Source of the DNA: Escherichia phage EC.P1
Strand: one strand, 5' to 3'
DNA: 64,000 bases
Sequence record: PQ657772.1
Shown here: piece by piece, positions 36,846-57,331 of the stretch
Position numbering within the stretch: the first letter of the stretch is position 1
How the letters are laid out: the number at the start of each line of letters is the position of its first letter
Notes under the pieces: model-generated
Told to the model about the DNA's origin: nothing
Seen by the model: the letters and a program-made list of their open reading frames with translations, nothing else
Databases searched by the model: none
Position numbers and translations under genes: made by a program

Positions 36846-36865
36846 GGGCTGACCGAAGTCAACCC
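36846..36865 (-). terminator. composite terminator/promoter cassette (GGGTTGAC-UUCG-GTCAGCCC + T-run + TATAAT)
   Basis: UUCG-tetraloop hairpin on minus strand; TTGACT in stem is 18 nt from TATAAT. Confidence 0.65.
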
Positions 36866-36871
36866 TTTCCT

Positions 36872-37387
36872 TTAATAATTATTCATTTCATCTTTGATTT
36901 GTTCTTCAATTTCGTCGAACATATCATTACTAGATTCGTCCTTACTACTTACGTTCTGCATATCTTTAACGTACTGTGGACATTCAACATCAGTAAACTT
37001 ATACCACGTAGGTTTCATCTGGAGCTTCTCAATCAAACGGTCACGAGACATTTTAATCTCTGACTCCGATGGTACGTAGTCATTACAAAACTCAGCCGGG
37101 AAGCCGCTAATGTCGTTTACTTCAGTGTTTTGAATCTTCATACCACGACGCAAACATTCGTTAACAATATCAATATGACGCTTCTGTAAGTACAATAACT
37201 TGTTGTAGAAGAATGTTACATGACCTGAACCTAACAGGTAAGTACTGTTAATTTTGAAATCACGGACTCGCTTACGTGCGTGAACATGTTTTTGTACAGC
37301 ACCAAACACACGTGGGAGTTCACGATATTCAGCCATCAGATGTTGGTCAGCAAGTTCTTTAACGTGTACTAAGTTAATGCGTGTCAT
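36872..37387 (-). CDS. denV: pyrimidine-dimer DNA glycosylase (T4 endonuclease V family) with acidic C-terminal extension
   Basis: N-terminus [31 protein letters not shown] is near-identical to T4 DenV; catalytic Thr2/Glu23 positions conserved. Confidence 0.85.
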
Positions 37388-37428
37388 GTATTCATCCTCT
37401 CGTTTCGATGAAATGATTATAGCAAAAA

Positions 37429-37448
37429 GGGCTGACCGAAGTCAACCC
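37429..37448 (-). terminator. composite terminator/promoter cassette
   Basis: GGGTTGACTTCGGTCAGCCC then TTTTTGCTATAAT. Confidence 0.65.
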
Positions 37449-37855
37449 TTTTTTCTTTCAATCAAACATAGTCTACCAGAATGTACCATGCGATGGTGAT
37501 TAGAACAAAGAATCATACACTTTCGAATTTCATCTTTGATAGATTCTCGACTTTTACTGAACATAGAACTTGGTGTATGTTCTTTGGTATTAGGGTCAAG
37601 ATGGTGAAAGTCTAAACATTCTGGATACTTCATCATACAAACACTACAACCATAAAATGATTTAACTCTGGTCATGAAATCTTTATTTTTTCTTTTGATT
37701 TCTTCAAGTGTTTTTACATCAGTTTTTTTATTTCTGGTTCTCTTACTGGTAATATTACTACAACCTTTGCATGTATTTCTATGTTTCCCAGTATCACTTC
37801 TTATACCAAATTCACTAATGTCTTTTTCAATATTACACGTGATACACTTCTTCAT
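37442..37855 (-). CDS. HNH endonuclease (Cys-rich, HNH motif)
   Basis: CxxC...DFHHLDP...CSNHHRMVH. Confidence 0.65.
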   Translation of the reverse strand: MKKCITCNIEKDISEFGIRSDTGKHRNTCKGCSNITSKRTRNKKTDVKTLEEIKRKNKDFMTRVKSFYGCSVCMMKYPECLDFHHLDPNTKEHTPSSMFSKSRESIKDEIRKCMILCSNHHRMVHSGRLCLIERKKG

Positions 37856-38139
37856 TGTTTAATCCATTTATTCAACAATGCACCCAACTTCACAATCTCA
37901 TACCCATCCAGATAGCCATAGGAACACTCAGGTGTTTCATAAGTTGAACCATCATGGATACCTTGGCATTGGCTTTTGGAACGTTCAAGCAATCGTTGCA
38001 GTACTGATACGTCATCAAGAACGTAATACAAGTTAGCATATGGGTCCGTCACAATACAGTACTTAAACATGCCAAATGTATCAATCGATTTTTCAACCTT
38101 AGCAAATTGTTTCTTTTCTTTATTATACAGTGCGTACAT
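37852..38139 (-). CDS. hypothetical protein (start trimmed)
   Basis: track start is TTG; ATG at 38137-38139 follows GGAG. Confidence 0.45.
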   Translation of the reverse strand: MYALYNKEKKQFAKVEKSIDTFGMFKYCIVTDPYANLYYVLDDVSVLQRLLERSKSQCQGIHDGSTYETPECSYGYLDGYEIVKLGALLNKWIKQ

Positions 38140-38140
38140 A

Positions 38141-38512
38141 TTAATCTCCATAATCAAGTTTAACTAACTTACCACCCAGATACCCAAAGTTTTCTGGCTT
38201 CGCATCTGAATAGAAGAAGTCAGTACTCAACTCTGAATCCAATGCTAAAGCACACAACTCCACCCAAAATAAACCCCTATGTTGTACTGGCTTACAACGT
38301 TTCTGTACAGTTACTAGTCCAGTACATGATGACCACAACGTAGGGCAGATACCACTATTACTACGCTTGGAGTACTGCATCCACGAACGTTCATTGAGGT
38401 TAGCTATCATCCCTGTTAAGAATAGCTTCCAACTTTTAAAGGTTGGAATCTTGATAGCATATTCCCCAATGAGTATGACAGTTCGTGTTGCACCTTTCAA
38501 ATCTATATTCAT
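38141..38512 (-). CDS. mini protein-kinase-like protein
   Basis: IGEYAIKI (VAIK-like), DAKPEN (catalytic-loop-like), LDYG (DFG-like); only 123 aa. Confidence 0.4.
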   Translation of the reverse strand: MNIDLKGATRTVILIGEYAIKIPTFKSWKLFLTGMIANLNERSWMQYSKRSNSGICPTLWSSCTGLVTVQKRCKPVQHRGLFWVELCALALDSELSTDFFYSDAKPENFGYLGGKLVKLDYGD

Positions 38513-38521
38513 ATTTTTTAA

Positions 38522-55041: not shown

Positions 55042-55242
55042 TTAATCAATGATTTTATATTCACGATGACCATAGAATCCAGCCTCAAGGATGCGATTAC
55101 CATCAGCATCTTCCAAATCCCACCCACGGGATGTTTCGGCAATAATAGTCATGATGTGACCTCTTGGGAAAATTCCACTCAAGGTGGATACATCCTCAAG
55201 TAATTGAACCTTCTTACCAACATTCGAATTTGATTTAAACAT
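55042..55242 (-). CDS. hypothetical protein
   Basis: 66-aa ORF. Confidence 0.5.
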   Translation of the reverse strand: MFKSNSNVGKKVQLLEDVSTLSGIFPRGHIMTIIAETSRGWDLEDADGNRILEAGFYGHREYKIID

Positions 55243-55251
55243 ACTTTACCC

Positions 55252-55434
55252 TTATTCGTTGATTACGTCAAGTACTTTGTCCAGTTTCTTACCAATACTA
55301 TCCTTTGGTTTATCACTATTCTGGAATACATTAGTACTGCAATACTCAGGACGGGTATTAGGGAACTTCTCGTTCATCCAGGAGTGACCATATACACCAA
55401 GAATGATACCTACGATAAGAATGATGATTTGCAT
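55252..55434 (-). CDS. small membrane-anchored protein
   Basis: MQIIILIVGIILGVYG. Confidence 0.5.
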   Translation of the reverse strand: MQIIILIVGIILGVYGHSWMNEKFPNTRPEYCSTNVFQNSDKPKDSIGKKLDKVLDVINE

Positions 55435-55448
55435 GATATATCCTCTAA

Positions 55449-56243
55449 TTAAATTACATATGGTTTATAGTAATGAATCTCGTTTGCGATTGCAGTGAAA
55501 ACTTTATTATTAAATCTTTCACCATAATCACGAAGTGATTCACCTTCTTCGCTTTCAATAAAGTAATTATATACTGGTAGACGTGCGGTGTCAACACCTA
55601 TAAATGATTTCATGTAAATTTGTACTAAACGATTCATTCCTTCATTTAAGCATTGCACCTCAAAGTGCTTGATACCTTTGTCTAAATGTTTGAATGCATT
55701 AATGATACCACGTTTAAAATCACTCTGCATAGTACTGAATAGATTCTCAGGGAACACTGTAATAGGTGACATTGATTTAAGAATGTATGTATCTTTAGCA
55801 TTCTTAATATACTCAATGAAGCAGTAGTTAACGTCAGGCTCGATAGAACGATCAGCGTTATGATACCAGTGCTTAAACTCACTGTACTCAGCAAACTTAT
55901 GCTGGCGTAATGCGTTACAATCCTCACACAATGCAGTCATGTTCTCTTTATCATTACCGCCCTGAAGACAGTCCAGTACATTATGGTCTAACGTCATGCG
56001 TACAAGGCGTTTCCCTTTAAGTACATAAGGTCTGAATTTATAACGGTCTTTAGTACTGTGCTTATGTAAAGTGAATACCACATTGGATTCACCACAACAA
56101 TCACATTTAAAGCCATCACGTGACATTACATGAATGAGTTTTCGAGTATTTGGTCCGAACTCAGATTTAGTAATGTTGCCGACAATTTCTGATGGGTCGT
56201 AGTATTTTGAATTCCGGCGAATCAATTCATCTATAGTGCTCAT
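55449..56243 (-). CDS. HNH endonuclease (start trimmed)
   Basis: CDCCG...LDHNV...GGNDKENMTALCEDCNALRQHK. Confidence 0.65.
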   Translation of the reverse strand: MSTIDELIRRNSKYYDPSEIVGNITKSEFGPNTRKLIHVMSRDGFKCDCCGESNVVFTLHKHSTKDRYKFRPYVLKGKRLVRMTLDHNVLDCLQGGNDKENMTALCEDCNALRQHKFAEYSEFKHWYHNADRSIEPDVNYCFIEYIKNAKDTYILKSMSPITVFPENLFSTMQSDFKRGIINAFKHLDKGIKHFEVQCLNEGMNRLVQIYMKSFIGVDTARLPVYNYFIESEEGESLRDYGERFNNKVFTAIANEIHYYKPYVI

Positions 56244-56244
56244 T

Positions 56245-56472
56245 TTATATTTCTCCAGCAAGACACTCAAAAGTGACTTTTTTAACTTCGATAACTCGTA
56301 CCAAATAGTATCCATGAAAGAAATTAAAACCAATCATTTGTGATAATGCATCTGCTTCAGATTTTGCACGGATACATGATAGATATAGTTCTCGTATATC
56401 GCCATCCAACGATGCTTGTTTCTCGTCATTGATAACAATAGAACGAATCTCAAAACGAACACCATAACTCAT
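56245..56472 (-). CDS. hypothetical protein
   Basis: 75-aa ORF. Confidence 0.5.
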   Translation of the reverse strand: MSYGVRFEIRSIVINDEKQASLDGDIRELYLSCIRAKSEADALSQMIGFNFFHGYYLVRVIEVKKVTFECLAGEI

Positions 56473-56678
56473 TCTGTTTGTCCAACAATTAGTTTTTCTT
56501 TAGTATTACTATTGTAACACCACATTAATTCTTCACCAACTGTTCTAAGTGAAACGCTGTTTACTTGTTCATACGTACTGTCACGTACTGCAATGCATTG
56601 ATTCATTGAATTCATTGGGGTGATTTGTACACCAGATTGTGGTGAAAGAGCAATAATTAAAAAGATTACTGAATTCAT
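56469..56678 (-). CDS. small secreted protein; promoter TTGACA-N17-TAGAAT upstream (~56735-56770)
   Basis: MNSVIFLIIALSP hydrophobic N-terminus. Confidence 0.5.
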   Translation of the reverse strand: MNSVIFLIIALSPQSGVQITPMNSMNQCIAVRDSTYEQVNSVSLRTVGEELMWCYNSNTKEKLIVGQTE

Positions 56679-57312
56679 TAGATATTCCTCAATGGTTAAT
56701 CATCCATCTCTTCGAGATGTCTGTTCGCTTCTAATACTACGTATTCTACGCGAATGAATCATAACTGTCAAGGACTTTTAATATTGACGGGATTTGAGGA
56801 AGGGATTTTTCTTCCCCCCGCACGGAGGGAAATTTGACGCTGATGGTATCAGAGCTATTGCATTGAAGATTACTCATAACGAGTGCGAAAGCGGGTCATC
56901 CTGTTTCTCTCTACTTCAGTTTCATATGACGGTCTACACTTTTAAACATAGTGTATCTTCATTAAGTATCTATGCAATCAAATACTTAATGTGAGTACTC
57001 AAATTTTGGACGCAACTTTCCTGTACAAAATTCGATAACTCTCCCTTAGATAATTCGTAAGGTGTTATCCTTATATGTCTATCGAGGAACCACCAGCTAT
57101 CCTAACGTGGTTCTTTATACAGCCGCATTGCCGTGAGGGGTTCAAACTATGCCCACATCTAACGGGTTTCTTTTGCTGTTCGCTACAATGAAAAGCTCAT
57201 CTATCCTTTACATTTTCAAGTGAAGTAGGGGAAGATTGTCAGTACCAGTACTGTCATTGTGATTGTACATAGATCATTGTATCACCATTAATAAATTTGT
57301 CCCATAAAAAAA

Positions 57313-57331
57313 GGCTGACCGAAGTCAACCC
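57313..57331 (-). terminator. composite terminator cassette downstream of the sigma-factor gene
   Basis: GGGTTGACTTCGGTCAGCC + TTTTTTTAT. Confidence 0.65.

Follow-up and report, generated by a model that had tools for sequence, protein, structure and literature searches.

Probable composite terminator and early-promoter cassettes of the promoter-early stem-loop type in the early region of a Rak2-like jumbo coliphage

The DNA considered here is a stretch of 64,000 nucleotides from Escherichia phage EC.P1 (sequence record PQ657772.1; the whole stretch is called the window), in which a short hairpin element recurs nine times, eight of them within a run of small minus-strand genes at 36.8-57.3 kb. 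Nucleotide comparison of the 36-46 kb part gave 98.8% identity to Escherichia phage fEgEco12 and 86-98% identity to other Asteriusvirus genomes, e.g. 121Q, PBECO4, and G17, with the relatives covering 55-94% of it. Judged by these matches, the source phage is a Rak2-like jumbo coliphage of the genus Asteriusvirus and not T4-like in the strict sense; the Rak2-like relatives that were compared have genomes of 350-385 kb (about 375 kb in Asteriusvirus). Following the annotation of relatives, the genes of the cassette-bearing segment are mostly hypothetical, and also include denV, HNH endonucleases, and a sigma70-family sigma factor. The equivalent region of phage CBB, with its RpoD-like promoters and sigma-factor gene, was proposed as an early region (PMC5259590). 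The interpretation developed below, which I hold with good confidence, is that the repeats are composite terminator/early-promoter cassettes of the type known as promoter-early stem-loops (PeSLs), situated in the early-gene region of this phage.

The hairpin, GGGTTGAC-TTCG-GTCAGCCC, was searched for with the pattern GGGTTGACTTCGGTCAGCCC, allowing up to 3 mismatches. Nine copies were recovered in the window, all on the minus (gene) strand, at positions 2400, 36846, 37429, 42052, 42734, 44813, 45594, 49188, and 57312, and zero matches occurred in 100 dinucleotide-preserving shuffles of the window. An earlier note on this DNA had listed nine minus-strand copies, and that count stood, with four of the coordinates shifted by 1-2 nt. 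A folding-energy calculation, proposed there as a check, returned stable structures throughout: all nine copies form an 8-bp stem (5 of the 8 pairs being G-C) with a tetraloop, often lengthened by pairing of the upstream A-tract with the downstream U-run, at -12 to -20 kcal/mol and z-scores of -2.8 to -5.5. The UUCG loop, previously ascribed to every copy, is present in seven of the nine; the copy at 2400 has UCCG and the one at 45594 has UUCA. A run of T5-T7 follows the hairpin in seven copies, and is weak at 44813 and 45594. Eight copies are intergenic, with the stop codon of the preceding gene 5-12 nt upstream on one side and a Shine-Dalgarno sequence and ATG after the -10 on the other, and they cluster at 36.8-57.3 kb among hypothetical open reading frames (ORFs), most of them shorter than 200 aa. 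The ninth, at 2400, drives a unit without an ORF. Searches with Rfam (gathering threshold for the whole window, E <= 1 for 1-12.5 kb) and ARAGORN found no RNA family or tRNA that would explain the cassettes or their neighbours.

Two canonical copies lie on either side of denV (36872-37387; this and all cassette coordinates refer to the minus strand). Cassette 3 (37409..37456), upstream of denV, has its hairpin at 37429-37448, its -10 at 37416-37421, and the leader CATCGAAACGAGAGG. Directly upstream of it ends a 137-aa ORF (37442..37855, minus strand) that is labelled "HNH endonuclease" in the annotation of relatives, had no Pfam match, and is absent from 121Q and G17. Its stop codon TGA (37442-37444) is the TGA inside the TTGACT of the hairpin, so that stop codon, -35, and stem coincide at these three positions. 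Cassette 2 (36826..36873) sits between denV and a 256-aa P-loop ORF (36034-36804) downstream of it, and comprises the hairpin at 36846-36865, the -35 at 36857-36862, a T-run with TG, the -10 TATAAT at 36833-36838, and a predicted start at about 36826. Cassette 4 (42032..42079; hairpin 42052-42071, -10 42039-42044) carries an A16 to G change that produces a U.G wobble pair, and cassette 8 (49168..49215; hairpin 49188-49207, -10 49175-49180) has the stem form AGG...CCT and the sequence TTTTTTGT.

The remaining copies depart further from this layout. Cassette 1 (2381..2427) has the hairpin TGGTTGAC-TCCG-GTCAGCCA at 2400-2419, TTGACT at 2411-2416, and, after TTTTGC and a spacer of 17 nt, the -10 TATTAT at 2388-2393; it drives a short unit that lacks an obvious ORF and carries the CTAGCCCACAGGGTGC motif. 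Cassette 6 (44795..44840; hairpin 44813-44832) continues with TTATA into the -10 TATAAT at 44802-44807, giving a spacer of 16 nt and almost no T-run, which was replaced at the edge of an HNH-gene insertion, and therefore poor termination is predicted for it. Cassette 7 (45574..45621; hairpin 45594-45613 with the UUCA loop, -10 45581-45586) has a weak T-run in the downstream variant TTTGTCG-TATAAT-ATTTTCATC and lies upstream of a 38-aa ORF at about 45419-45532 that was placed by homology to fEgEco12 g552. Cassettes 5 and 9 appear to be terminator-only. Cassette 5 (42727..42761), following a 497-aa virion structural gene, consists of the hairpin AGGTTGAC-TTCG-GTCAACCT at 42734-42753 and T7, with GTAAATA in place of a sigma70 -10; cassette 9 (57305..57339; hairpin 57312-57331, then T7, no -10) stands directly after, and 3' of, the sigma-factor gene (57339..58307, minus strand; Pfam Sigma70_r2 and Sigma70_r3).

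A sigma70-type -10 hexamer thus follows in seven of the nine copies, 16-18 nt from the TTGACT of the 5' arm. The sequence TTTTTG(C/T)-TATAAT-yATTTCATC is found at 36846, 37429, 42052, and 49188. The claim that TTTTTGC-TATAAT is attached to all nine hairpins therefore has to be narrowed to these four and the variant at 45594, since 2400 and 44813 differ and 42734 and 57312 have no -10. Likewise, the spacing of 18 nt given for TTGACT and TATAAT applies to five copies, with 17 nt at 2400, 16 nt at 44813, and no -10 in the two remaining ones. The TGC or TGT preceding TATAAT, which had been overlooked, constitutes an extended -10 (TGn, using the final G of the T-run) in four of the nine copies. By sequence, then, the features of a sigma70 promoter (TTGACT, a spacer of 16-18, and TATAAT or TATTAT) are predicted in seven copies, and those of an intrinsic terminator, i.e. 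a GC-rich stem, a UUCG loop, and a 3' U-run on the sense strand after a gene, are likewise found, with weak U-runs at 44813 and 45594. The minus strand of the window contains 29 near-consensus sigma70 promoters (>=11/12 positions) and the plus strand 5, and the hairpin type appears as one of at least two promoter families in it.

Conservation was used to evaluate the -35 within the stem. For this, 98 unique copies with at most 3 mismatches to the 18-mer core were collected from the window, four Asteriusvirus relatives, and 42 IMG/VR loci, and aligned without gaps; pair statistics were taken from this alignment. The TTGA of the 5' arm is invariant in all 98 and C8 is kept in 97, while the 3' arm shows changes at positions 15, 16, and 17 (in 4, 4, and 13 copies, respectively), nearly all of which yield G.U or Watson-Crick pairs, and the outer stem pair covaries (G-C, A-T, T-A, C-G). 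Because the search pattern is symmetric, this asymmetry between the arms suggests that the 5' arm is under an additional constraint, such as a -35 would impose. Moreover, the variant pairs are G.U on the sense strand only and would be A.C mismatches on the antisense strand, which argues for a constraint on the sense-strand RNA.

The promoter parts are coupled to the hairpin in the same collection. With a -10-like hexamer defined as at least 4/6 matches including A2 and T6, 87 of 98 copies (89%) have one 16-19 nt from TTGAC, 45 of them at 18 nt and 39 at 17 nt, against an expectation of 20.6 (21%) after shuffling of the downstream sequence. Among the 88 copies that were aligned on the -10, the extended -10 has T in 79 and G in 70, an A (+1) occurs exactly 7 nt after the -10 in 78, the -1 position is a pyrimidine in 83, and each of the 8 nt before the hairpin is A in 47-78 copies. 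Bacterial chromosomes served as a control: the same hairpin and T-run were accompanied by a correctly spaced -10 in only 2 of 26 unique sites (8%), and the coupling of hairpin and promoter therefore appears to be phage-specific. Existing annotations hold the two halves separately, in that the G17 GenBank record marks orthologous hairpins as ARNold terminators and the fHe-Yen9-03 record marks an extended -10 on the same element, with neither record noting both signals. The dual function that had been proposed for the element is thus consistent, in most copies, with the strand, the -10 coupling, the TG, the start position, the invariant TTGA, and the ARNold annotation, and does not extend in full to the two copies without a -10 and the two with a poor U-run.

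Comparison with relatives placed several genome rearrangements at the cassettes. Relative to both fEgEco12 and WPEC3, the only break is at 44206-44810 of the window, a segment that is absent there and holds a NUMOD4/HNH_3 homing-endonuclease gene (44261..44803, minus strand). The start of this segment is only 2 nt away from the 3' edge of the hairpin at 44813, where it takes the place of the T-run; at the opposite end it has displaced the first ~25 codons of the structural gene. In relatives, the hairpin orthologous to 44813 continues as TTTTCTTTATACTATAAATATAG, containing the T4-late-type TATAAATA, upstream of a virion structural gene (fEgEco12, L043, 28270-28321; G17, L044, 27215; 121Q, L046, 23736); the orthologue there would be a hairpin with a late-type promoter, and it is this part that the HNH insertion appears to have replaced in the window.

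A second junction lies within the hairpin itself. After denV, 121Q (L046, 16001-16023) and G17 (L044, 19448-19470) have a half cassette, AAAGGAAAGGGTTGACTTCGGT|TACACAAAGG (AAAGGGTTGACTTCGGT|TACAC), that consists of the 5' arm, the loop, and two bases (GT) before unrelated sequence begins. Five genes follow (genes 218-222 in 121Q, a different set in G17), and a full cassette then stands before gene 223, 2.9 kb downstream of the half cassette. In the window, one intact cassette joins denV to the gene 223 homologue, without the five intervening genes, which points to a crossover inside the hairpin; in RB49, a crossover was mapped to the hairpin loop (PMC2839356). Compared with 121Q and G17, the 137-aa HNH-annotated ORF is moreover inserted directly upstream of cassette 37429, and the genes on both sides of cassette 42052 are replaced (by a protein kinase gene in 121Q), leaving the cassette as an island of similarity. 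Between G17 and 121Q, a module bounded by two conserved cassettes is replaced, with one boundary exactly at the cassette edge. Of 15 breakpoints in all, 4 are no more than 25 nt away from a hairpin, corresponding to P of about 1e-4 under a uniform null and 0.03 under a gene-junction null. The cassette copies are alike over 48-74 nt at 86-100% identity, which would be enough for a recombination substrate.

The mechanism that I propose for these elements is as follows. RNA polymerase arriving from the upstream gene would transcribe AAA-GGGUUGAC-UUCG-GUCAGCCC-UUUUU, and the 8-bp hairpin capped by C(UUCG)G would, together with the U-run, release the transcript in the manner of an intrinsic terminator. 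The same duplex DNA would act as an early promoter for host sigma70 holoenzyme: the TTGACT of the 5' arm would be the -35, the 3' arm and T-run would form the spacer of 17-18 nt, the last T of the T-run and the following G would provide the TG of the extended -10, TATAAT would come next, and transcription would start at a pyrimidine-A step 7 nt on, about 26 nt downstream of the hairpin. Since the new RNA would begin downstream of the hairpin, it would not be terminated by its own cassette, and the terminator may also protect the promoter against read-through polymerases. The outcome would be a string of insulated early units with one or two small genes each. As the copies are alike over about 50-75 bp, homologous recombination may also take place at them, with the deletion, insertion, or swapping of gene modules between related phages as the result.

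The composite terminator/early-promoter reading of most copies is well supported in silico, with sequence, fold, conservation pattern, genomic context, and recombination junctions observed directly; termination and initiation by the window cassettes would follow by analogy with the lacZ-fusion tests on PeSLs of RB49 and phi1. Several points weigh against it. The 98 copies are not independent, as many are orthologues, and the two copies that have no -10 retain TTGAC as well, so that shared ancestry or gene conversion among the repeats, and not a -35 function, may account for part of its invariance. Most cassettes escaped an automatic terminator scan, in which the stem was extended into the A/T tracts and too few Ts were left; the cassettes were therefore scored separately with a terminator index of the d'Aubenton-Carafa type, and this index was positive for seven of the nine window copies and negative for 44813 and 45594. 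The U-run is short (five Us, then GC), and termination may be partial, in the sense of attenuation. The phage encodes its own sigma factor, so that host sigma70 is a presumed factor in the holoenzyme at these promoters. Lastly, two of the cassette-adjacent indels are homing-endonuclease genes with an insertion mechanism of their own, and hence not every junction supports recombination mediated by the cassettes.

Three alternatives were weighed. In the first, the repeats are plain intrinsic terminators in which the TTGACT of the stem is incidental, the -10-like hexamers belonging to independent promoters or to none. In line with this, 24 of 26 bacterial-chromosome sites have the hairpin and T-run without a correctly spaced -10, the two window copies lacking a -10 retain TTGAC all the same, and the annotators of G17 marked terminators only. 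This alternative is nevertheless highly unlikely: it leaves unexplained the -10 at 16-19 nt in 89% of phage copies versus 21% after shuffling and 8% in bacteria, the conserved TG and pyrimidine-A start at +7, and a 5' arm that is invariant while the 3' arm drifts, and homologous PeSLs drove lacZ expression (PMC2839356). The 20-bp inverted repeat might instead be a DNA operator, at which a dimeric regulator of phage or host binds over the -35 and shuts off the early promoters, with the RNA hairpin being secondary. Phages of this kind are expected to show early shut-off, the centre of the repeat, a near-perfect palindrome, falls on the -35 and spacer of early promoters, and another palindrome, CAGTACTG, is abundant at promoters of the window, so that promoter palindromes do exist in this phage. 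An operator, however, would not be expected to tolerate T4.G17, A16G, C15T, and C20T, which break the palindrome in DNA and yet remain G.U pairs on the sense strand only, as under an RNA-level constraint. The RNA-stabilising UUCG or UCCG loop in eight of nine window copies, the T-run 3' of the hairpin, and the identical hairpin in hosts as distant as Brochothrix and Acinetobacter, for which a common DNA-binding regulator is unlikely, count against it as well, and I consider it improbable, although the least so of the three alternatives weighed here.

The third holds that the repeats are primarily mobile or recombinogenic DNA, such as landing pads of homing endonucleases or the ends of small mobile cassettes, and that their regulatory appearance is a by-product. 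Two HNH-type genes do adjoin cassettes at nucleotide resolution, a crossover has been placed within the hairpin, cassette-flanked modules are swapped, and minicircles were reported for the PeSLs of RB49 and phi1 (PMC2839356). General targeting of cassettes by homing endonucleases was considered and rejected, as the 137-aa HNH gene is sporadic and single-copy per genome. The TG, the +1 start, the U-run, and the G.U asymmetry are not needed for recombination, and recombination at PeSLs belongs to the composite-cassette explanation and is not an alternative to it; of the three, primarily mobile DNA is the most improbable.

The composite cassettes are not restricted to the window. Their 36-nt core matches 71 phage records exactly or nearly (>=90% identity), and the matches take in every Rak2-like genus: Asteriusvirus, K64-1, CBB, Serratia phage BF, Yersinia phage fHe-Yen9, and Erwinia pEa phages, together with RaK2 itself in the IMG/VR scan. 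In 121Q, all eight exact copies lie within the region homologous to the window. The core also occurs in the T4-like schizo-T-evens (Aeromonas phage 65 and 253-kb Vibrio phages), and IMG/VR added the rV5-like Cronobacter phage CR3 and the SPO1-like Brochothrix phage A9, the latter with a Gram-positive host and two copies that have TATTAT at 17 nt. Among IMG/VR contigs, one of 118.8 kb carries the cassettes L003 and L011, and one of 161.9 kb the same copies (L019, L024). The leader CATCGAAACGA(A/G)A, which follows the predicted start at 37400-37415 of the window, was also observed in Vibrio phage nt-1 (L047), CR3, and IMG/VR contigs (L006, L015, L017, L031).

The identical hairpin and T-run were also found in the chromosomes of Acinetobacter (about 12 species), Exiguobacterium, Vibrio, Bacteroidetes, Bdellovibrio, and Clostridia (L048-L073). 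As it looks like an ordinary terminator in these unrelated bacteria, the 18-mer can arise by convergence, and sequence identity across phage families is weakened as proof of horizontal transfer; convergence on TTGAC, UUCG, and a GC clamp is plausible and has to be taken seriously. The occurrence of the leader CATCGAAAC in phages that infect gamma-proteobacteria is a hint that the cassette as a whole may go back to one ancestor. Near-identical copies are found in Rak2-like phages of at least six host genera, in Vibrio and Aeromonas schizo-T-evens, in CR3, and, without the leader, in A9. It is accordingly a tentative and rather doubtful suggestion that the ~50-75-bp cassette (from the A-tract through GGGTTGAC-UUCG-GTCAGCCC, T-run, TG, -10, and pyrimidine-A start, often with the leader CATCGAAACGA) is a regulatory module shared between phage families. 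If the copies stem from horizontal spread and not from convergence, it would be a universal 'linker' through which unrelated phages exchange ready-to-express genes by homologous recombination.

Two features of the window are more unusual: CAGTACTG is in excess, and the first 12 kb hold short promoter-driven units that lack an ORF. CAGTACTG is the most frequent 8-mer, with 57 copies versus 0.95 expected from dinucleotide-preserving shuffles (a 60-fold excess), and is densest at 8-12 kb; no description of this excess was found in a limited literature search. AGTACT occurs 253 times in the window and the next commonest palindromic hexamer 60 times. Within genes the excess extends over all three reading frames (3.3 per kb), and between genes it is more pronounced (6.8 per kb); it therefore looks like selection at the DNA level, a binding or modification site being one candidate. 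A second early-promoter family, TTGACA-N9/10-AGTACTG(G)-TATAAT, has the palindrome directly upstream of its -10, as at 188-215, 711-732, 8385-8413, 11301-11328, 39592-39619, and 54918-54945. Extra AGTACT copies often lie upstream of the -35, and at 994 and 4388 the arms CAGTACTA...TAGTACTG form a stem that encloses it. At 33495-33521, near the junction of the plus- and minus-strand gene blocks, a perfect 12-bp inverted repeat, AATCCAGTACTA-TTA-TAGTACTGGATT, was scored as a terminator on both strands and looks like a bidirectional terminator built from AGTACT arms. Related GCCAGTAC-TTT-GTACTGGC hairpins occur in the plus-strand array at 12000-32000, where tandem paralogous RCC1-like genes, each ~1.1 kb long and labelled 'chromosome condensation regulator' or 'DNA condensation protein', vary in copy number among relatives; in G17, most of them have an annotated terminator of their own.

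The units without ORFs, located at 1-12500, are short and consist of a sigma70 promoter, CATCAAGACG..., ~25 nt, and the motif CTAACCCAC(C/A)GGGTGC, with motif sites at +6900, +8431, +10588, -8507, -5862, -2365, and -156. The two at 8431+ and 8507- run towards each other and overlap, forming a sense/antisense pair, and one unit is driven by the cassette at 2400; the motif also follows cassettes in other phages (L002, L012, L020, L027). The units had no Rfam family match in 1-12.5 kb and are candidate small RNAs. Positions 912-9590 match a segment that is annotated as direct terminal repeats in the relative vB_Ec-M-J. Finally, a gap of ~430 nt without an ORF of at least 40 aa lies at 56878-57311, downstream of the sigma-factor gene and its terminator-only hairpin; it holds CAGTACTG at 57246, and G17 has a gap of 620 nt at the matching place.

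The cassettes give a concrete transcription map of the early region for giant coliphages in which >70% of genes lack an assigned function, each cassette being a boundary at which one unit would end and the next begin. They also suggest a route for swapping small accessory genes, as relatives differ mainly by cassette-bounded modules, and bear on how regulatory repeats drive phage mosaicism. A fully overlapping terminator-promoter of about 35 bp may be of use as an insulator in synthetic biology. None of this overturns current understanding.

Hairpins with a C(UUCG)G cap are reportedly found in T4 intercistronic regions and intrinsic terminators (Tuerk et al. 1988). They share with the window cassettes the extra-stable tetraloop with a C-G closing pair, the intergenic position in a large virulent coliphage, and the U-run that follows; the window stem differs in that it also encodes a putative -35, and its U-run would also be promoter spacer and part of the extended -10. 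The morons of lambdoid phages resemble the cassettes as autonomous transcription units that are added without polar effects (PMC2839356). Their flanks, in contrast, do not consist of conserved repeats, nor are they regarded as a cause of the movement, while the window cassette is itself a conserved and recombining flank. Closer at hand, promoters and terminators were predicted for the same group of phages and the same sigma-factor-bearing early region in CBB (Buttimer et al. 2017, PMC5259590) and in the G17 and fHe-Yen9-03 records. There the two signals were predicted separately, and their overlap as one element, or a link to gene shuffling, was not noted. The papers on RaK2, phAPEC6, Sharanji, and fEgEco12 do not discuss promoters or terminators, and no description of PeSL-like composites in Rak2-like phages was found in the literature on RaK2, CBB, phAPEC6, Sharanji, and fEgEco12 or in a jumbo-phage review.

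The closest match is with the PeSLs of T4-like phages. In RB49 and phi1, these combine strong sigma70-like promoters with terminator stem-loops that lie between the promoter boxes or overlap the -35 or the -10, and lacZ fusions showed both promoter and terminator activity (Arbiol et al. 2010, PMC2839356). They were later extended to PST/T4 and nt-1/KVP40, with an nt-1 consensus of a stem-loop A3-4G3-loop-C3T3-4 and a promoter TTGYVH-N17-TAWWAT (Comeau et al. 2014, PMC4122927). The sequence of Vibrio phage nt-1 contains intergenic elements with the layout and spacing of the cassette, e.g. AAAGGGTTGACAGATGTCAGCCCTTTTTTGTATCAT, AAAAAGGGTTGACAGATGTCAGCCCTTTTTTGTATCAT, and AAAAGGGTTGCTTCGGCAGCCCTTTTTTGTTATTCT, and other nt-1 promoters have the leader CATCGAAACGAGA downstream, as after the window's 37429 cassette. 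Because architecture and spacing are shared, the embedded -35 is not new; the earlier note had singled it out as notable, which does not hold, given the PeSL subclass that overlaps the -35 (PMC2839356) and the same arrangement in nt-1. Further likenesses are the AT-rich tract upstream of the -35 of an intergenic sigma70-like early promoter with its terminator stem-loop, the stop codon at the 5' end and the Shine-Dalgarno sequence and ATG at the 3' end, the presence of numerous conserved copies where small ORFans make up a variable region, and indels or replacements between close relatives that end at the elements, with a crossover within the stem-loop. With nt-1 in particular, the cassettes have in common the A3-4G3-loop-C3T3-4 hairpin, TTGAC in the 5' arm, equal spacing, and the CATCGAAACGA leader, and the two hairpin-only copies of the window are comparable to the 'degraded' PeSLs of Comeau 2014 (PMC4122927).

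There are differences as well. The cassettes reside in a Rak2-like jumbo phage (Asteriusvirus) and not, like the PeSLs described so far, in Straboviridae T4-like phages, a residence that marks the range of the description and is not a mechanistic requirement. The window copies vary less, having a single hairpin sequence and a UUCG loop, while RB49 has five positional subclasses; some hairpins of the window type come without a promoter, and one in fEgEco12 is followed by the T4-late-like TATAAATA. The demonstration by reporters and minicircles belongs to the RB49 and phi1 elements, the window cassettes being known from their sequence. On balance, the cassettes appear to be the same kind of element as PeSLs and as such are not new as a concept; what is new is modest, namely the extension of PeSLs beyond T4-like phages to Rak2-like jumbo phages, to which the recombination junctions at nucleotide level are a useful addition.

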